Shown here: piece after piece, positions 28,615-35,888 of the stretch | Numbering within the stretch: the first letter of the stretch is position 1 | How the letters are laid out: every line of letters starts with the position of its first letter | Source: Candidatus Thorarchaeota archaeon SMTZ1-45 | GTDB lineage: Archaea; Asgardarchaeota; Thorarchaeia; Thorarchaeales; Thorarchaeaceae | Length of the DNA: 36,229 bases | Direction of reading: 5' to 3' | NCBI GenBank assembly: GCA_001563335.1 | Contig: LRSL01000092.1 | Coordinates: 1-36,229, forward strand | Notes under the pieces: model-generated | The model's input: only the letters and a program-made list of their open reading frames with translations | Told to the model about the DNA's origin: nothing | Database searches by the model: none | Made by a program: the position numbers and the translations under genes

Positions 28615-29223
28615 CTACATCAGAGGACTTTTACTCTCCGAAAGAGCTTTTTCCAGAACAACCTCAGCGATACGAGTAAACACATTGTTGACCTCATCAC
28701 CAGTTTTCGCTGAAGTTTCAAAATACTCTGCTTGGAACCAGTCGCGCAGCATTAATCCAGGCTCTTGAGGAACCATTCTAATGTCTGCAAGGTCTATTTT
28801 ATTGGCGCTGATGATGACCGGTGACGCAGGACAGACCTCTTTGAATGATTCAAACCAATTGTTCATAGCCATGAATGTTTCAGGACGTGTGACATCATAG
28901 ACAATAATCGCACCTGAAGCGCCTTTCATGAATTGTCTTCTTAGTTCCCTATATGTGGATTGACCCCCCATGTCCCAAACGTTTAGGCGAACTTTCCGAA
29001 CACTGCCCTCAGTGTCAGTCACATCAATGTCTTTAGTTGCGAAGGTCGTTCCAATAGTTTGTTTGTATTCTTCATCAAAGACATTCTCGGTATATCGCCT
29101 TACAAGCGATGTCTTACCTACGGCTGCCTCTCCTAGTAAGACTACTCGAAACTTGTATCCTTCGAACCCATCTGATGTGTCTGTATCAGACATGGTTTCT
29201 GAAGTTTCGTTTCTCTGAGTCAT
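28615..29223 (-). CDS. Rab-like small GTPase
   Basis: G1 GEAAVGKT, TIG, WDMGGQ, NKID, ETSAK and VYDVT. Confidence 0.93.
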   Translation of the reverse strand: MTQRNETSETMSDTDTSDGFEGYKFRVVLLGEAAVGKTSLVRRYTENVFDEEYKQTIGTTFATKDIDVTDTEGSVRKVRLNVWDMGGQSTYRELRRQFMKGASGAIIVYDVTRPETFMAMNNWFESFKEVCPASPVIISANKIDLADIRMVPQEPGLMLRDWFQAEYFETSAKTGDEVNNVFTRIAEVVLEKALSESKSPLM

Positions 29224-29327: not shown

Positions 29328-31007
29328 TTATGTAAACCATTCAGTAATTCTATGCATAATTAACTCAAAAGCTATGACTGGATATCCAATTCCGAAATTT
29401 GAGAGTATCATCGGAGAAATCTCACCAAAGGAGCCGCATACTTCACCATCAATCTTTATGCACGCAGATCTACCTTCGATAAAGTCTGAGCTATCCTCTG
29501 ATTCAAATGTGAAACGTTCATCCAATCCAAGATTTCTCAAAAGAAATCCTATCTCGGTCATGAGATTGGTAATATTCACTTTAACATCTGTAACCAAACC
29601 GCATACCGACGTAACTTGGTCTACACATGTTTCCTGTGTATCATCAGGAATTGCTACATCTCCCACTTCATAGATTTTTTGGGGATAGTCTGTATGTTGG
29701 TTCTGCGAAGCGAATTCAAGAACAACAGGCAAGAGTGAGTTACGCAAGACGGAGTAGTTGCGACTCTTTGGATTTCCTGTAGTTACCAAAGGTCTTTTGC
29801 GTAACATTTTATCATTGAGCAATTCCGGAGAACTCATGATATAGTTCATGATCTCCTGATAACCCATTCCAACCATGAGGTCTCGAACCTTGTTCTTGAT
29901 TCGAGTCACGTGATTAAGCTTGCCCGTCGTCATTGTTTGGGGCATTCTAGGTTCAAGTCTGTCGAAACCATAGCCAATAGCTACATCCTCTATTATATCA
30001 ACGGGATGAAGAATGTCCATTCTGAATTTGGGAATCATAACTTGAACTTGATCAGTTTGTGTCAATTTGGCTCCATAGCCCATTCTTTCAAGAGCTTGGA
30101 CAATCTGTTTTTCCGTCATATTTAGTCCAATTAGTGAATTGATATCATTGATAGGAATCTTCATCACTTCAGGATTGAAATTTGGAGTTTCGTCAATTGT
30201 ACCATTTGGATATACCACTGTCACAGATTCGATCTTCCCTCCTCTTTCAGCAAGAGAAGCTGTAATGATATTCAACGCTTGATGTACTGTGGGAAGATGA
30301 GTACCAGTGACTTCCACAAAGATGTTCTTAGTTTCAGTTGTAATTCGACCAAGACTATTGCTATTGATTATTGGTGGAAGACTTAATACTTGATTATTAG
30401 AGTCAAAGAGCAACGGCCATCGTTTATGCCTCTGAATGATTGATCCAAATTCAATCCCTTTTTCATGCTCAGTCATTATAGTTGGACCATCCATCTCAAC
30501 CTCATGACCCAAAGGTACGAACCTTATCTTCTCTGGTTTTTGCAATCCATAGAATACTGGAAAATTAAGATCATTATACACATAGAGACCAATGCTGGCT
30601 TTGTTTCTGTTTCTTCCATGTGTTGAAGTAAGAGCATCTTGAAGGTGCATGTATTCCTTGATTAATTCATCATCAGATGGTACTCCCCTAAGGATTGAAC
30701 AACAAATGAACGGTCTGATTTTGCTTAGTCCTGGTTTGACAATGACCTGTCTACCCGATTTCTTTACAGGGTATTTCTTCAATCCAGTTTCAATGCATAA
30801 GAATGACCTAACTGCCCGAGCAATACCCTCAGCTGATAACATGTCCTGACGGTCTGGATTCACCTCTATCTCAATGATATTTCCATCTACTTTTTCAACC
30901 TCTGCTTTCACTAAAAATAGAGTGTCTTCTAATTGTTTAAGGGTTAGTTTTTTCCCAATCAATGAAAGAAGGTCGTCAATCCTACATTCTACAATCATAG
31001 CAATCAC
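29328..31007 (-). CDS. pheT: Phenylalanine--tRNA ligase beta subunit (archaeal type)
   Basis: DRQDMLSAEG, LSLPPIINS, RMDILHPVDIIEDVAIGYG and LRNSLLP. Confidence 0.96.
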   Translation of the reverse strand: MIAMIVECRIDDLLSLIGKKLTLKQLEDTLFLVKAEVEKVDGNIIEIEVNPDRQDMLSAEGIARAVRSFLCIETGLKKYPVKKSGRQVIVKPGLSKIRPFICCSILRGVPSDDELIKEYMHLQDALTSTHGRNRNKASIGLYVYNDLNFPVFYGLQKPEKIRFVPLGHEVEMDGPTIMTEHEKGIEFGSIIQRHKRWPLLFDSNNQVLSLPPIINSNSLGRITTETKNIFVEVTGTHLPTVHQALNIITASLAERGGKIESVTVVYPNGTIDETPNFNPEVMKIPINDINSLIGLNMTEKQIVQALERMGYGAKLTQTDQVQVMIPKFRMDILHPVDIIEDVAIGYGFDRLEPRMPQTMTTGKLNHVTRIKNKVRDLMVGMGYQEIMNYIMSSPELLNDKMLRKRPLVTTGNPKSRNYSVLRNSLLPVVLEFASQNQHTDYPQKIYEVGDVAIPDDTQETCVDQVTSVCGLVTDVKVNITNLMTEIGFLLRNLGLDERFTFESEDSSDFIEGRSACIKIDGEVCGSFGEISPMILSNFGIGYPVIAFELIMHRITEWFT

Positions 31008-32516
31008 CTACCTAACGAAATAGCTCCTCCTAAGCCAATTCAAATCTCGTGAAAAGAGATCTCTGATGTCATTGATTCCCATTGAAGCCATATAGAGTCG
31101 TCCAGCTCCAATCCCCCATGCAAGTACTGGATCCCTAATTCCAAGAGGCTGTGTAACCTCAGGCCTAAAAATTCCTGAGCCTCCTAACTCTATCCATCCT
31201 ATCTCTTTGTGTTTTCCGAAGGTTTCTACACTTGGCTCTGTGAATGGGAACTGACCTGGTTTAAACTTTAACTTTTCAATACCCACTCCCTTACATATCG
31301 AGGTCAGATATCCCAAAAGATCTCTTAGTGCAAGTCCTTTATCCATGATAATACCTTCACACTGGTCAAACTCCTGTGCATGAGTTGCACTGAGAGTTTC
31401 AGATCTGAAGTTGCGATCAATGATGAACATTTTCTGGGGACTCTCGCGATGTTCATAGAGATACCGCATTGATACAGGTGTTGTGTGCGGTCGTAGACAA
31501 AGGCGTGTTGCTACTTCTTTACTATAAGGCCAATCCCATCCCTTTGATCCAGTGTTTCCTCCATTCTCATGTACTGCCTTAACTTCTCTATAGTATTTCT
31601 TGTCGAGAATGTGTCCATGGTCATACGGATCAGATATACGGAATTGATCTTGAACCTCTCTTGCAACATGATCTTGAGGAACAAAGAGTGTGTCGTGAGC
31701 CCAGAATTCAGTTTCCACATATGGTCCATACCATTCAGTGAAACCCAAACCAACCATAATCTCTCTCAACCAATCATTGAACTCCGCATATGGGTGCTTT
31801 TTCCCATAATTACCATAGGCTGGTTTGATGTCAACATTATACGGTCTAAATGATACATTTCTCCATGCATCACTGGCAAGTAACTCGGGAGTGAGGTTTC
31901 CAATACCTTTCACTCCCACTTCGATTAACTGCTCAATCTCCCTGATCTCTGCCTGCACAATTTCAGCTTCGAATTTCTTAGTGACAATCTCATAGACTAG
32001 TTTCCTTTCCAAGGCTTGTTTCAAAGATTCTGCATATTTCTCTGAAAGTGTTCCTTTTCCAGTGGAGAGATCCTCCAACAAATCAGAAACATCCCATTGG
32101 TCTAGTTCCACTAAACATTGCAGGACCGTAGTGCCCTCCTCTTTGGATATTTGTAGCCATTCATTTTTTCGAGCCCAATTCATTGCGATTCCTTTGGTTT
32201 CTGCATCAAGCCCTGCTTTGCCAACAGCGTCATCGAAAGAGGCTTTTCCCCCTAAACTCTTCACTGCATTAAAAAGTCGGATTTCTGGAAGTCCTATGTC
32301 AGCGTATTCAATTCCCTCGTCTGTGAGCGAATATGAAACAATCTCTCTTGCATGAATCTTTACAAGATTACGGCTAGCAAGAGAGTTGAGAATAGATATC
32401 ACACGCTCCTCCCCCTGCTTTAGATTACTAGCAAGTTGTGAGGTTTGTACGCGCTGGCTAAGGTTCAAAAGCTCTCTGAGTACTTCTCTTTCTCCTTCTG
32501 TCAGCTTGTCACTCAT
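31008..32516 (-). CDS. pheS: Phenylalanine--tRNA ligase alpha subunit (archaeal type)
   Basis: GLPE, GKKHP, LRPHTT, FRSE, FPFTEPS, ELGGSGIFRPEV and AWGIG. Confidence 0.96.
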   Translation of the reverse strand: MSDKLTEGEREVLRELLNLSQRVQTSQLASNLKQGEERVISILNSLASRNLVKIHAREIVSYSLTDEGIEYADIGLPEIRLFNAVKSLGGKASFDDAVGKAGLDAETKGIAMNWARKNEWLQISKEEGTTVLQCLVELDQWDVSDLLEDLSTGKGTLSEKYAESLKQALERKLVYEIVTKKFEAEIVQAEIREIEQLIEVGVKGIGNLTPELLASDAWRNVSFRPYNVDIKPAYGNYGKKHPYAEFNDWLREIMVGLGFTEWYGPYVETEFWAHDTLFVPQDHVAREVQDQFRISDPYDHGHILDKKYYREVKAVHENGGNTGSKGWDWPYSKEVATRLCLRPHTTPVSMRYLYEHRESPQKMFIIDRNFRSETLSATHAQEFDQCEGIIMDKGLALRDLLGYLTSICKGVGIEKLKFKPGQFPFTEPSVETFGKHKEIGWIELGGSGIFRPEVTQPLGIRDPVLAWGIGAGRLYMASMGINDIRDLFSRDLNWLRRSYFVR

Positions 32517-32838: not shown

Positions 32839-33918
32839 GTGTCCTTGGATCGATATAGGTTAAAGCGCAAAATTGAGAAGCTAAAAGCTTACCAAGGACG
32901 CCATAGCTCTTTCACAACAATCTATGTTCCACCTACAAAGAATCTTGTTGATGTCATTAGTTTTGTTAGAACTGAACTGGCTGGTGCAGATAATATCAAG
33001 AGTAAAGCAAATAGGAAGAATGTTTCAGACAACCTCACTGCAATTCTGAGCGAACTCACAAAGATCAGCGAAATCCCTGAGAATGGAATTGCGTTCTTTT
33101 ATGGGATTCAAGAGGAAGGAGGAACGAATGAAGAGATACGCGAGATCGTAATTCCACCTTCACCCATCTCACAGTTCTTCTACCTCTGCGGTCGTGAATT
33201 CGTAACAGATGAACTCGAATCCATGACTCAACCCAAAAGTTTGGTTGTGATTGTGTTGATTGAAGGTGGTAAGGTTACCATAGGCTATCTTCGTGGAAAA
33301 CACATGGAACTTGTTCGTGACGAGGATTTCTATATCATTGGCAAAACGAGAGCTGGTGGTCAAAGTGCAAAACGGTATTTGAGAATTCGTGAAGAAAAGA
33401 TGATGGAGTTCTTCAAATATGTTGGCCGTATTCTGAATGAGCTTCTCGTTGATAATCTGGATAATGTTGATGCAATTGTGTTGGGTGGTAACACCATTCG
33501 GTGTCAAGAGTTTTTAGAAAAAGGTGATTTGGACTATCGTTTAAGAGAGAAGATTGCAGAAACGATTATTCCCGTCAGTGTCATTGATGAAACAGGTCTC
33601 TATCAAGCAATGAAAGAAGCATCTCGAATTCTTCGAGAAACAGAGATCTATGCTGAACGGCAGACATGGGATAGCTTTATGGCTGATCTTATGAAGGGGC
33701 TCACTAATATAACATATGGTAAGGAGGAAGTAATGGAAGCACTTCGAAGCGGTCGTGTAGAAACTATCATGGTTTCAGAGGATCTTGCAGAACAGATGGA
33801 TGAATTATATGAAGAAACTTCAACTTATGGGACCCAACTTCTAGTTTTTTCAAATCAGACAGAATCCGGAGCGCAGCTAAAAGCGTTTGGTGGGATGGCT
33901 GCAAGGTTACGTTGGTAA
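32839..33918 (+). CDS. prf1: Peptide chain release factor aRF1 (short form, variant decoding motifs)
   Basis: NIKS, YLCGREF, GGQS and FGGMAARLR; SD AGGTGA before GTG. Confidence 0.9.
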   Translation: MSLDRYRLKRKIEKLKAYQGRHSSFTTIYVPPTKNLVDVISFVRTELAGADNIKSKANRKNVSDNLTAILSELTKISEIPENGIAFFYGIQEEGGTNEEIREIVIPPSPISQFFYLCGREFVTDELESMTQPKSLVVIVLIEGGKVTIGYLRGKHMELVRDEDFYIIGKTRAGGQSAKRYLRIREEKMMEFFKYVGRILNELLVDNLDNVDAIVLGGNTIRCQEFLEKGDLDYRLREKIAETIIPVSVIDETGLYQAMKEASRILRETEIYAERQTWDSFMADLMKGLTNITYGKEEVMEALRSGRVETIMVSEDLAEQMDELYEETSTYGTQLLVFSNQTESGAQLKAFGGMAARLRW

Positions 33919-33919
33919 T

Positions 33920-34336
33920 CTATCCTTTTGGTGGACTAGGCATACCTCTCAGTGTTTCGATATCTTCAATCCACTTAGCTAATTCAATACTTATACCATT
34001 GATATACTCTAGAAGTGCTTGCTGATACTTTCGTAAATGCTGCTGTTCGAGCTTCTGTGATTTCGATAAGAAGTCTTTCGAACGTCTTGGAAAACCAATC
34101 GACCATTGTTGAAGATTGAGTTCAGCCTTTCTATCCTCAAGTATCTTCTTGGCTATCCTGATTGTTCGCCGCTTGGAAATAAGGTCTTCAAGTAATTTCT
34201 GTAGAGTTATTGTTGCTGCAACAAGTTCCTTTGCATCTAGCTTTGTGTCTTGATCACGACTTGTATAATATACACGTTTGAGGTCTCTTTTAGCAGTCAT
34301 CACATGAGTTAGGAGTCTTGTCAATGAATGAACCAT
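33920..34336 (-). CDS. Hypothetical basic alpha-helical protein (138 aa)
   Basis: ATG 34336 after AAGGTG avoids overlap with the upstream gene; amphipathic helices. Confidence 0.65.
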   Translation of the reverse strand: MVHSLTRLLTHVMTAKRDLKRVYYTSRDQDTKLDAKELVAATITLQKLLEDLISKRRTIRIAKKILEDRKAELNLQQWSIGFPRRSKDFLSKSQKLEQQHLRKYQQALLEYINGISIELAKWIEDIETLRGMPSPPKG

Positions 34337-34403
34337 GGCACCTTTTTGTTGATTCTGTAACGTAAAAAGGTCTGTGTTGTTGTATTCCTTCGCACAACGG
34401 ATT

Positions 34404-35063
34404 TTATGTAAGAGAATAGTTGCATCGATCACTGCTATATGGACAGACTCTGCAGCGGTTTGCCTCATTAGTTGGCTTTGGCTTTCTTCCATTATACCAT
34501 ACTTCATCCAATCTCTGCAATTTTTTAAGCACCCTGTTTGGTTTGAATTTAATCACGAATGTTTTTCCATCACTACATCGCCAACACAGATTTGTTAATC
34601 TTTTAGCCAGACATCTCTTAGCTTTTTCTTGAAGACAATATATTATTACAAGTCTTGTTGATGAGCATGATACACCACCCTCAAGGAGGGCAAGTGCATA
34701 TAATCCTGCTTGAAACACATCTTCTGATCTTGCTTCTCGAGGAAGATATGTCATAGGAAATTTGCGTTCTATAATGCAGTCCAAAATTGGTGCTTCCTCC
34801 AAATGGAGAACTCCTCCATCGAGTCTGCCCATGTATCTGTGTCCCAAGGATTTTACAACTTCTTCAGAGAAGTAGTAATACTGATTGGTAACACCCCGAA
34901 TTGGTTTCATCCTAAGAAAATCTGATAGACTCCATTGAGCTGGAAGTGCTCTTTCTATTTTCCTTCTAGTGCTTGAAAATCCAATGCTTGGATATGATGC
35001 AAGAAAAAGAAAAACTCCAATGAAAATGACAATCATCATTATCAAAGTAACTAAATCTCTCAT
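34404..35063 (-). CDS. N-terminally membrane-anchored Cas4/RecB-like PD-(D/E)xK nuclease, C-terminal part
   Basis: TM helix LVTLIMMIVIFIGVFLFLA; GRLD, IIERK, QAGLY and CRVCPYxxxxC. Confidence 0.75.
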   Translation of the reverse strand: MRDLVTLIMMIVIFIGVFLFLASYPSIGFSSTRRKIERALPAQWSLSDFLRMKPIRGVTNQYYYFSEEVVKSLGHRYMGRLDGGVLHLEEAPILDCIIERKFPMTYLPREARSEDVFQAGLYALALLEGGVSCSSTRLVIIYCLQEKAKRCLAKRLTNLCWRCSDGKTFVIKFKPNRVLKKLQRLDEVWYNGRKPKPTNEANRCRVCPYSSDRCNYSLT

Positions 35064-35067
35064 ATAA

Positions 35068-35298
35068 TCACCAGAAGATCCACAAGAACCCCATAATCGA
35101 GGTCAGAATGATTATCAGCAGGGGCAAGAGCTTTCTCTCCGACCTCTCTCTATTTTCTCCCTTTGACTTCATGTTAATGTACTGGTGTAATTCATTTCCA
35201 GTAATGCTTGCCAAAGAATGGATGTCTCCAAACTGTTGCTTAAGATGCAGTCGATATTCACACTGATACTGTGTTCTCAAGTCTGATACATCTCGCAT
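35068..35298 (-). CDS. Cas4-like N-terminal fragment with C-terminal TM helix
   Basis: VSDLRTQYQCEYR and GNELH motifs, then LLPLLIIILTSIMGFLWIFW. Start is ATG 35298 or TTG 35337. Confidence 0.68.
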   Translation of the reverse strand: MRDVSDLRTQYQCEYRLHLKQQFGDIHSLASITGNELHQYINMKSKGENRERSERKLLPLLIIILTSIMGFLWIFW

Positions 35299-35465
35299 CT
35301 TGTAAAAAGGTCCTTTTTCAGCATCTGTCAACCTCAAGGTTGGTCGTAGTAATGTTTTAGATAATCCTACAAAAGGACCACACCTCTGACCAAACAGTAG
35401 AGATTCACTTATATTCGAGTTTGAGGAGTTACATCAACAGGATTTCGCTACGGAGACAAATGCTG

Positions 35466-35888
35466 ATGTCAGACGAAACCTATGAAGGTGCTACTGCCGG
35501 AAAAGTACTAGTTTTTGATGAAAGTGAGACTGTAAAATTTCCAACAGCTTTTAAGAACGCTATGGGGACTGGTCAAGGTCTAATGGTGCTTGTACACAAA
35601 GACAGGCTCATTAAGATATTTCCTCTTGAGAGTGATGAAGTGTTATTTCTCAGTCTTGAGATTGGTAAATTAACCAACGACTTCTTGACTAAACTCTCTC
35701 AAATTTTCAAGAGGGCAGGTCTCGTTGATCTATTGTTCTCAACGGGAGTATGTCTCCGAGGAACAAGATGTTTCTATGAATGCTACTTCAATCCTGGACA
35801 ACTCAGTTCAGATATTTCAGAACTAGAAAACTCTCTCAAAGTTCTGGATGGAGTTCAAAGAGTCGTAATTGATCAAGTTTCAGTCTAA
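35466..35888 (+). CDS. Hypothetical protein, AbrB-like N-terminus plus ACT-like C-terminus
   Basis: FDESETVKFPTAFKNAMG resembles AbrB; FLTKLSQIFKRAG...LENSLKVLDGVQRV resembles ACT. Confidence 0.55.
   Translation: MSDETYEGATAGKVLVFDESETVKFPTAFKNAMGTGQGLMVLVHKDRLIKIFPLESDEVLFLSLEIGKLTNDFLTKLSQIFKRAGLVDLLFSTGVCLRGTRCFYECYFNPGQLSSDISELENSLKVLDGVQRVVIDQVSV

Follow-up and report, generated by a model that had tools for sequence, protein, structure and literature searches.

The window analysed in this work is a stretch of 36,229 nt of DNA from Candidatus Thorarchaeota archaeon SMTZ1-45 (assembly GCA_001563335.1, contig LRSL01000092.1, positions 1-36,229). Between positions 34404 and 35337 its minus strand carries two consecutive open reading frames (ORFs), a small one and then a large one, as seen in the ORF listing and in the sequence of the window. 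We consider it likely that these genes encode the two halves of one iron-sulfur (Fe-S) PD-(D/E)XK nuclease of the EXO5/Cas4 type, which would act at the membrane, on its cytoplasmic side, as a heterodimer. The core of this reading, a single Fe-S nuclease made from two membrane-anchored products, had been put forward in an earlier note on this DNA, and it is supported here by profile mapping, fold, topology, conservation and prediction of the complex; the ORFs, motifs and junction given in that note proved accurate to the base.

In the proposed arrangement, the small tail-anchored protein would supply the N-terminal helical segment with C26 and the Gly-x3-His motif (H51), and the large protein, held by a transmembrane helix of its own, would supply the beta-sheet core, the residues D82, E99-x-K101 and Q118-x3-Y122, and the cysteines C204, C207 and C214. 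The large protein also bears a lineage-specific four-Cys insert. Neither the cluster nor the active site would be complete within one chain, and a shared Fe-S cluster would staple the two chains into one nuclease domain at the inner face of the membrane. The two transmembrane helices would pack antiparallel, with the free ends pointing outward and the soluble parts in the cytoplasm, and the membrane tether would limit the enzyme to DNA that reaches the membrane.

Homology to single-chain nucleases

Distant single-chain proteins of 246-268 amino acids (aa) were also obtained in the search of sequence representatives described below. The single-chain set consists of seven proteins (P0161, P0165-P0167, P0170, P0171 and P0173), all of which match Pfam Exo5 (PF09810) and PDDEXK_1 at an E-value (E) of 0.01 or lower, some of them below the gathering score. 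The two window proteins map to complementary parts of this family by hhalign: residues 13-54 of the small protein correspond to single-chain residues 25-66 (probability 92.9%, E 3.6e-7), and residues 60-219 of the large protein to single-chain residues 86-254 (probability 99.3%, E 2.6e-20). Moreover, when all six frames of the 3.54-Mb genome were searched with the single-chain profile, only these two ORFs were found, the large one at E 1.2e-20 and the small one at 1.4e-3.

The single-chain profile matches human EXO5 at E 1.1e-14 over almost its full length, including the N-terminal Cys-Glu segment and Gly-x3-His, and the Cas4 protein SSO0001 at E 5.5e-4. The large protein by itself reaches EXO5 at E 0.06 and its 47-row profile at 5.7e-4, and PADLOC Cas4 models give about 1e-14 with the single-chain relatives. 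Human EXO5 is the best sequence match in the PDB, and PF09810 is present in 69% of the members of the nearest Atlas cluster. Thus the Cas4/AddB-type identity first given to the enzyme holds for superfamily and fold, but the closest solved relative by sequence is human EXO5 and not Cas4. When each half was checked by profile, as had been suggested along with that identity, both mapped to the single-chain relatives, but the small protein gave no direct match to a solved nuclease. Since the scans of curated families were nearly empty (see below), membership is assigned at the level of the superfamily, through profiles and fold.

Strong full-length matches to the single-chain family were found in 5 of 224 Asgard genomes outside the source family; five loci of single-chain relatives (L064-L068) are short, and their gene context was uninformative. 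More distant relatives by the single-chain profile occur in longer frames in other Asgard families: 10 of the 11 genomes in family f27 have one of 312-323 aa, and G235 has one of 536 aa (L065, G235:C157:5250-5861). A second PDDEXK_1 match in the source genome, a 248-aa protein on contig C37, was set aside, as it does not have the Fe-S Cys pattern. In the Atlas results for the small protein, rank 30 is a Bacillota cluster of about 98 aa, with PF12705 in 14% of members and a feature score of 0.90, which could be another separately encoded N-terminal nuclease fragment.

Predicted composite metal and Fe-S sites

Invariance was counted over 47 pairs. L20, Q23, C26, G47 and H51 of the small protein are the same in 47/47, as are, among other residues of the large protein, G79, D82, E99, K101, Q118 and Y122 and the cysteines C143, C151, C160, C163, C204, C207 and C214. 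In the profile alignments, C26, G47 and H51 fall on C38, G59 and H63, which are invariant among the single-chain proteins, and the segment with C26 and Gly-x3-His falls on the matching Cys and Gly-x3-His segment of human EXO5. On the large protein, G79, D82, E99, K101, Q118 and Y122 align with single-chain G104, D107, E121, K123, Q139 and Y143, and C204/C207/C214 correspond to the C-x2-C-x5-C of human EXO5 and to the final part of the NCBIfam cas4 model. Over both proteins together, the match to the single-chain C, G-x3-H, G-x2-D, E-x-K, Q-x3-Y and C-x2-C-x5-C is one-to-one.

Because of this one-to-one match, the small gene would provide one of the predicted cluster ligands (C26) and the large gene three (C204, C207 and C214), a 1 + 3 division. 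By the same alignment, the motif I His is assigned to the small protein and the acidic and Lys residues of the active site to the large one. The Gly-x3-His of motif I contributes to the metal site in these enzymes, and in the group of AddB, AdnAB and Dna2 an Fe-S cluster staples an N-terminal helix to the C-terminus. The motif pattern suggests that the pair binds such a cluster. That the ligands are shared between two genes had been claimed at the outset, and the claim agrees with the complementary hhalign mapping, with the invariance in 47/47 pairs and with the placement of all four Cys in the predicted interface of the complex.

The four-Cys insert of the large protein is a candidate second metal site, as judged from its conserved cysteines. 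It is absent in 6 of the 7 single-chain relatives, and P0161 has a comparable four-Cys stretch. In the complex model, residues 145-160 of the insert contact the small subunit; confidence of AlphaFold2 (AF2) is low in this region, with a predicted local distance difference test (pLDDT) of 55-82.

Fold of the large protein

For the large protein, AF2 yields a model with a pLDDT of 83 and a helix at residues 2-23 (pLDDT 92-94). The top matches of this model by Foldseek are Cas4 8d3l_J (1.8e-3), EXO5 7lw9 (4e-3), MGME1 and SSO0001, with E from 1.8e-3 to 3e-2. With VIA-align, the Z scores were 10.4 for Cas4 7mi4_A (root-mean-square deviation 3.4, 118 aligned), 8.8 for MGME1, 8.5 for the DinG nuclease domain, 7.7 for AdnAB, 7.2 for EXO5, 5.4 for AddAB and 4.2 for Dna2. 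The nearest structural cluster in the Atlas is an archaeal Exo5/PDDEXK_1 group of 261 aa, at a template modelling (TM) score of 0.63. These comparisons indicate that the large protein, as modelled, has the RecB-like PD-(D/E)XK core fold.

Gene anatomy

The small ORF starts with TTG at 35335-35337, with an alternative ATG at codon 14 (35296-35298), and includes VSDLRTQYQCEYR, in which C26 is encoded at 35260-35262, and GNELH, in which H51 is encoded at 35185-35187. It ends in the hydrophobic LLPLLIIILTSIMGFLWIFW, directly followed by TGA, and its product is predicted to be a tail-anchored protein that bears the N-terminal segment of the nuclease domain. The large gene starts 4 nt after the stop of the small gene, in the +1 frame; a Shine-Dalgarno (SD)-like GGTGAT at 35067-35072 overlaps the stop codon of the small gene. 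The large ORF begins MRDLVTLIMMIVIFIGVFLFLASY, its N-terminus being written as MRDLVT-LIMMIVIFIGVFLFLASY, and is laid out as an N-terminal transmembrane anchor, a PD-(D/E)XK core with the strings GRLD (D82), IIERK (E99, K101) and QAGLY (Q118, Y122), and a C-terminal Fe-S motif. The coordinates of these features are given in Table 1.

Table 1. Features of the two-gene locus in the window (positions of the window).
Feature	Coordinates	Strand	Basis
Small subunit gene, 89 aa, TGA stop at 35068-35070	35068..35337	-	ORF, homologues and profile alignment
Small-protein segment from C26 to G47-x3-H51	35185..35262	-	Invariance and profile alignment
Predicted C-terminal transmembrane helix of the small protein, about residues 69-89, with 0-1 residue after it	35071..35133	-	Hydropathy and complex model
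Junction TGG TGA TTAT ATG	35061..35075	-	Sequence
Large subunit gene, 219 aa, TAA stop at 34404-34406	34404..35063	-	ORF, 131 homologues and AF2 model
Predicted N-terminal transmembrane helix of the large protein, about residues 4-24	34992..35054	-	Hydropathy and AF2 helix
Catalytic motifs G79-R-x-D82, E99-x-K101 and Q118-x3-Y122	34698..34829	-	Invariance and alignment
Four-Cys insert C143, C151, C160, C163	34575..34637	-	Invariance
C204-x2-C207-x6-C214 (CRVCPYSSDRC), predicted three C-terminal Fe-S ligands	34422..34454	-	Invariance and alignment

Predicted membrane anchors, assembly and translation

Transmembrane helices were called from Kyte-Doolittle windows of 19 residues in the 47 pairs, together with the structure models. 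The best window of the small protein has a mean of 2.55 in the source genome (median 2.77 over 47 proteins), is followed by a tail with a median of 1 residue, and has on average 2.2 Lys/Arg in the 15 residues before it and 0.04 after it. In the large protein the window mean is 3.09 in the source genome (median 2.71 over 47 proteins), the helix begins at about residue 4, and the charges are reversed, with 0.09 Lys/Arg before it and 3.1 in the 15 residues after it. The hydropathy of all 47 pairs agrees with the helices first noticed at the end of the small protein and at the start of the large one.

According to the positive-inside rule, the positively charged flank of a transmembrane helix stays cytoplasmic. 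Because of this charge bias, both soluble parts would be cytoplasmic in 47/47 pairs, so that they would lie on the same side, a point on which the earlier note had asked for a check. The same charge bias places the cut ends of both chains outwards, as complementation and Fe-S chemistry demand. By hydropathy and charge, the small protein has in 47/47 cases the properties of a tail-anchored protein, with a single C-terminal transmembrane helix, no N-terminal signal and a cytoplasmic soluble part. An ArsA/Get3-family ATPase is encoded in the genome (E 4.8e-86), but the same search was positive in 13 of 14 control genomes, so it carries little weight.

With 47-row alignments as input, the predicted complex scored 0.93, whereas the best of three controls reached 0.01. 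The mark of 0.93 was reached by 58 of 80 solved complexes and by 2 of 110 mismatched pairs, these counts being rough, with own alignments used. At least 81% of the contacts agreed between runs, and the pLDDT of the partner was at least 82. The predicted membrane interface joins residues 5-23 of the large protein with residues 72-89 of the small one, both with helical periodicity, and in the soluble interface small residues 12-62 lie on large residues 66-82, 100-122, 145-160 and 181-216; C26, C204, C207 and C214 are all within it. The models are in line with an assembly of the two chains, and the heterodimer suggested at first passes the controls at the level of prediction, with its four Cys all placed in the interface. 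Alone, the small protein models poorly (Atlas predicted TM score 0.26), which fits a domain fragment that would fold on its partner.

The SD-like GGTGA, already remarked upon in the first reading of the sequence, is found at a distance of 9-10 nt upstream of the large start codon in 30 of 47 loci, where about 1.3% would be expected, although kinship among the genomes inflates this count. In a member of the family, G128, the 3' end of the 16S rRNA reads ...GGATCACCTCCT, which is complementary to GGTGA(T). No 16S gene was found in the source genome; two of five relatives had one, and only the 3' end from G128 was usable. Since the stop codon of the small gene sits inside the SD-like GGTGAT, termination on the small gene and translation of the large one are probably coupled. 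In G128 (L085, G128:C2), the 16S match spans 2411 nt for a model of 1478 positions, which suggests one or more large insertions or introns. The 16S sequence of G075 (L084, G075:C2) deviates from the usual 3' end after ...CCGTAGCGG.

Conservation of the pair

Database searches gave 131 homologues of the large protein at E <= 1e-3, nearly all of 201-230 aa, and 16 homologues of the small protein, of 87-105 aa. The homologues of the large protein carry labels of Thorarchaeota and other Asgard groups, and some were named Cas4 by the pipeline of JGI; the NCBI records label these proteins as hypothetical. In a phylum sample of 301 genomes searched with the large-protein profile, matches were found in 65 of 76 other genomes of the source family and in 3 of 224 genomes outside it, the latter all weak. 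We inspected the locus in 49 other genomes, comprising the 29 best-scoring loci and 20 chosen to cover other genera. In 49/49 the large gene is immediately preceded, on the same strand, by a homologue of the small gene, which is complete in 48/49; the exception is G081. In every locus examined the small ORF stops right behind its hydrophobic tail. The split is therefore a recurrent feature of these genomes, which was one of the checks first proposed.

The pair is single-copy in the genome and is under purifying selection: the ratio of nonsynonymous to synonymous substitution (dN/dS) of the large gene has a median of 0.18 and a range of 0.11-0.40, over the 46 pairs with 0.05 < dS < 2 taken from all pairs of 49 genes. 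It is passed on vertically, under constraint, and is dispensable.

No fused form was found among the 131 matches of the large protein (120-384 aa), the longest of which at 243-285 aa owe their N-terminal extension to the large frame being read across the small gene. There was likewise none among 21 strong matches in 1.84 billion representatives, all of 252 aa or shorter, and none in a search with the small protein for longer proteins (43 candidates, none at E <= 0.001), which is weak evidence. The alternative that the earlier note had offered, one protein with an inserted transmembrane hairpin, has thus no extant form in these searches, but such an ancestral single protein is plausible as an evolutionary intermediate.

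Evidence against the heterodimer and alternative explanations

Several observations weigh against a two-chain Fe-S nuclease acting on DNA at the membrane. The Pfam scan of the window proteins returned no relevant model at E <= 10, the NCBIfam cas4 model matches the large protein only in its C-terminal part (E 0.02, 14.8 bits against a cut-off of 65), and PADLOC gave weak Cas4 matches only (2.4e-4). PF12705 is matched by only 4 of 29 relatives (best E 9.4e-6), and PF01930 likewise by 4 (best 0.012). The small protein matched no curated family and no solved nuclease directly in profile searches of Pfam, NCBIfam and PDB sequences, and its assignment comes from a 42-column profile alignment and conserved motifs. 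The transmembrane helices are calls from hydropathy and structure models. Moreover, because the single-chain relatives have solved structures, the pass in complex prediction may reflect likeness to single-chain Cas4/EXO5 more than binding. With regard to function, the pair was not found in 11 of 76 genomes of the family, which makes it dispensable; it is cleanly absent, with the flanks abutting, in four family genomes (93-99% complete, genera g4 and g15), and family and PADLOC scans linked no defence or DNA-uptake gene to it among its housekeeping neighbours.

Two further genomes belong with these points. In G081 (L031, G081:C80; L081, G081:C145) the small gene is interrupted by inserted DNA near codon 36 and the large gene is intact. 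In G209 (L075, G209:C355) the first 69 codons of the small gene lie about 8 kb upstream of an intact large gene, and the insert holds a 727-aa ORF ending ...HADLNAARNI..., whose product, going by its C-terminus, we take to resemble a nuclease of the TnpB/IS605-OrfB type. Between these two genomes, dN/dS of the large gene is 0.20 at a dS of 0.8; where the small gene is interrupted it is 0.20-0.31, against the reference 0.11-0.40. Either the insertions are recent or the large protein has some function without an intact partner.

The second possibility leads to a different reading, in which the large protein is self-sufficient and the small one, instead of belonging to the catalytic domain, has an auxiliary part, for example as anchor, regulator or inhibitor. 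It would account for the interrupted small genes beside intact, constrained-looking large genes in G081 and G209. It can also draw on the solo-Cas4 of M. mazei, of which PMC12501428 reports that mutants in the cluster Cys lose the cluster and keep nuclease activity. However, the large protein begins past the first helix, the first Cys and the Gly-x3-His of its single-chain relatives, and the small protein contains exactly the missing segment, together with the invariant residues that go with it. The predicted interface also buries the small segment against the catalytic and Cys motifs. We regard a self-sufficient large protein as improbable, and the heterodimer is to be preferred.

Equally improbable, in our estimation, is a dedicated antiviral effector that would destroy DNA at the membrane, with assembly of the halves as the trigger. 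Membership in the Cas4 family would fit such a role, as would the patchy presence of the pair within the family with its clean losses, and the sporadic single-chain relatives (5 of 224 other Asgard genomes); a split active site would permit conditional assembly. Against this, the pair is single-copy and keeps a fixed place between housekeeping genes in 44-47 of 49 loci, it is under ordinary purifying selection, PADLOC sees in it only a weak Cas4, and it has no defence neighbours. Co-translation from one coupled message, moreover, favours constitutive assembly.

That the two ORFs are translated into one polypeptide, by programmed frameshifting or by readthrough of the stop codon, as a nuclease with an internal transmembrane hairpin, would be favoured by their distance of only 4 nt and by two loci (L033 and L036) in which both ORFs are in the same frame, with one TGA plus 24 or 9 nt between them. 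A table of junctions in 50 loci including the window, in which the start codons of distant loci were picked heuristically, holds at least 14 distinct geometries: a gap of 4 nt in 24 loci, a gap of 5 nt in 10, an overlap of 1, 4, 16, 31 or 37 nt in 9, a gap of 1, 10, 13, 14 or 26 nt in 5, and the two in-frame cases. The frame relation varies accordingly (+1 in 27, +2 in 21, in-frame in 2), and some ORFs overlap by as much as 37 nt, so that one and the same recoding event could not fit all loci. Each large gene, moreover, keeps its own start codon directly before the transmembrane helix, preceded by GGTGA in 30 of 47, and no fused protein is on record. Such varied junctions exclude a uniform recoding as well as an assembly error, and recoding in general is to be considered very improbable.

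An error of assembly or sequencing, or a recently broken pseudogene, might be suspected in a metagenome-assembled genome of 119 contigs, but its probability is negligible, as 48 of the 49 other genomes share the layout, contigs of two further public runs (X3 and X4) span 34892-35145 and bridge the junction with no indel, and both genes are conserved, the large one with a dN/dS of about 0.18. The earlier note had stated that its reading would fall if orthologues were single ORFs and the reads showed an error at the junction, and neither was found.

Possible function of the proposed heterodimer

By analogy with EXO5 and Cas4, the activity of the assembled heterodimer would most likely be that of a metal-dependent 5'-3' exo/endonuclease on single-stranded DNA. 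For its role we can make only a tentative proposal, which is that it may process or destroy DNA ends at the inner face of the membrane, for example those of viral or transferred DNA that enters the cell. An enzyme of the solo-Cas4 type, confined to the membrane and acting in repair or replication, is conceivable, if rather doubtful. Activation by pairing of the transmembrane helices, and a part in the processing of incoming DNA or in defence, both raised in the earlier note, are speculation. Asgard archaea are the prokaryotes nearest to eukaryotes, and in a bolder version, which we find unlikely, the pair would be a natural obligate split enzyme, with a cluster and an active site only at places where the two separately inserted membrane proteins meet; it would have arisen by fission of an Asgard EXO5-like gene, would be confined to the inner membrane surface and switchable by assembly, and would guard the membrane against entering DNA in the manner of TREX1.

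Genomic context and losses

The gene order around the pair, which is preserved in the 44-47 of 49 loci mentioned above, is aRF1-like gene, unknown gene, large gene, small gene, divergent 155-aa gene and membrane-protein gene; the subunits of phenylalanyl-tRNA synthetase (PheRS) and a Ras-family GTPase are further neighbours. The aRF1/eRF1-like protein (32839-33918, plus strand, 359 aa) has the three eRF1 domains and GGQ, and its gene adjoins the locus in 47 of 49 genomes. PheRS alpha and beta are encoded at 29328-32516, and near them, at 28615-29223 on the minus strand, is a small GTPase of the Ras/Roc/Arf type (Pfam Ras, E 2.1e-44), which is typical for Asgard archaea.

Cas1 (PF01867) and Pfam Cas4 were not found in the source genome, which is 87.7% complete. 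The statement made for the window, that it holds no CRISPR array or other cas gene, thus extends genome-wide for Cas1 and Pfam Cas4, and the pair is CRISPR-independent.

The ORF downstream of the large gene (33920-34507, minus strand) is 195 aa as called and overlaps the large gene by 104 nt. Because similarity in distant relatives starts at residue 57-65, the ORF is probably shorter, with its start at M58 (34336) and about 138 aa. Its product is a conserved, coiled-coil-looking protein with no Pfam or PADLOC match. This gene (33920-34336) was considered as a third component and rejected: it stays beside the 155-aa gene in four genomes that do not have the pair, so its adjacency is positional. 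The divergent 155-aa protein (35421-35888, plus strand) is highly conserved: identity is 89-95% at many loci within the genus and 57-78% across the other genera that were examined. Five genomes were searched for paralogues, and each has 4-5 of them; the protein has no Pfam match.

A decayed locus is seen in G046 (L053, G046:C39, about 2090-2660), where only about the first 47 codons of the small gene are left (53% identity, E 1e-11), with about 430 nt where the 660-nt large gene should sit. In genus g5, an intact pair is present in G224.

Comparison with known systems

EXO5 (PF09810; human structures 7LW7-7LWA) shares with the pair the N-terminal Cys-Glu, Gly-x3-His, D, ExK, QxxxY and C-x2-C-x5/6-C. 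Unlike the pair, it is one soluble chain of about 370 aa; here there are two genes, each with a transmembrane helix, plus the four-Cys insert. The window proteins fall short of the Pfam model. The closest relatives found are the single-chain archaeal Exo5-like/PDDEXK_1 proteins of about 250 aa, with which all catalytic and Fe-S residues are common and whose length the two window proteins jointly cover, although they are themselves unsplit and have no transmembrane helix. Where these have a link of 20 residues, the pair has a linker, a transmembrane helix, a stop, a start, a second transmembrane helix and a linker (35 + 59 residues).

Cas4 and solo-Cas4 (PF01930, TIGR00372; 4IC1, 7MI4, 8D3L) are alike in fold and in the four-Cys pattern of the cluster, but they are soluble and single-chain, the sequence matches are weak (E 0.02 to 2.4e-4), and the source genome has no Cas1 match. 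A CRISPR-associated Cas4 lies beside cas1/cas2 or an array; the neighbours here are the aRF1-like gene, PheRS and unknown conserved genes. The evolutionary style of the pair resembles the one reported for solo-Cas4, for which PMC5704561 describes genes that are inherited vertically, lie outside CRISPR loci and are under selection close to the median of the genome. In that paper the words 'split' and 'Thorarch' do not occur, and 'membrane' occurs once. A characterised solo-Cas4 is a Mn/Mg-dependent nuclease with a [4Fe-4S] cluster (PMC12501428).

The Fe-S domains of AddB, AdnAB and Dna2, and MGME1, which has no Fe-S cluster, have the RecB-like core and are among the fold matches, but they are domains of large helicase-nucleases or soluble enzymes. 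To our knowledge, none of them is split inside the nuclease domain or anchored to a membrane. A nuclease at a membrane is known in TREX1, whose DEDDh fold is unrelated. Its C-terminal tail anchors it on the membrane with the catalytic domain in the cytosol, where it removes cytosolic DNA (PMC11904002). TREX1 serves as an analogy only, since it is a single chain of the eukaryotic endoplasmic reticulum and a likeness of roles has no support.

The Fe-S PD-(D/E)XK nucleases (Cas4, EXO5, AddB, Dna2) are known as soluble single-chain domains, and in the literature, supplements aside, we found no description of a split or membrane-anchored nuclease of the Cas4/EXO5 type. The enzyme class is already known and the gene pair is dispensable, which makes it interesting rather than revolutionary. 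What is apparently new is the fission within the catalytic domain, the transmembrane helix at each cut end and the Cys4 insert. The cut falls inside the domain, between motif I and the beta core, so that cluster and active site would span two polypeptides, which makes the pair a compact natural test case for how far a fission inside a domain is tolerated, for transmembrane helices as a possible assembly device and for the contribution of an 'iron staple' to folding. The pair would also place a DNA nuclease at the inner face of the membrane of Thorarchaeota-type Asgard archaea, and points to an unstudied DNA transaction there. Finally, since no solved relative is closer in sequence than human EXO5, a phylogenetic tree would be a worthwhile test of where eukaryotic EXO5 came from.

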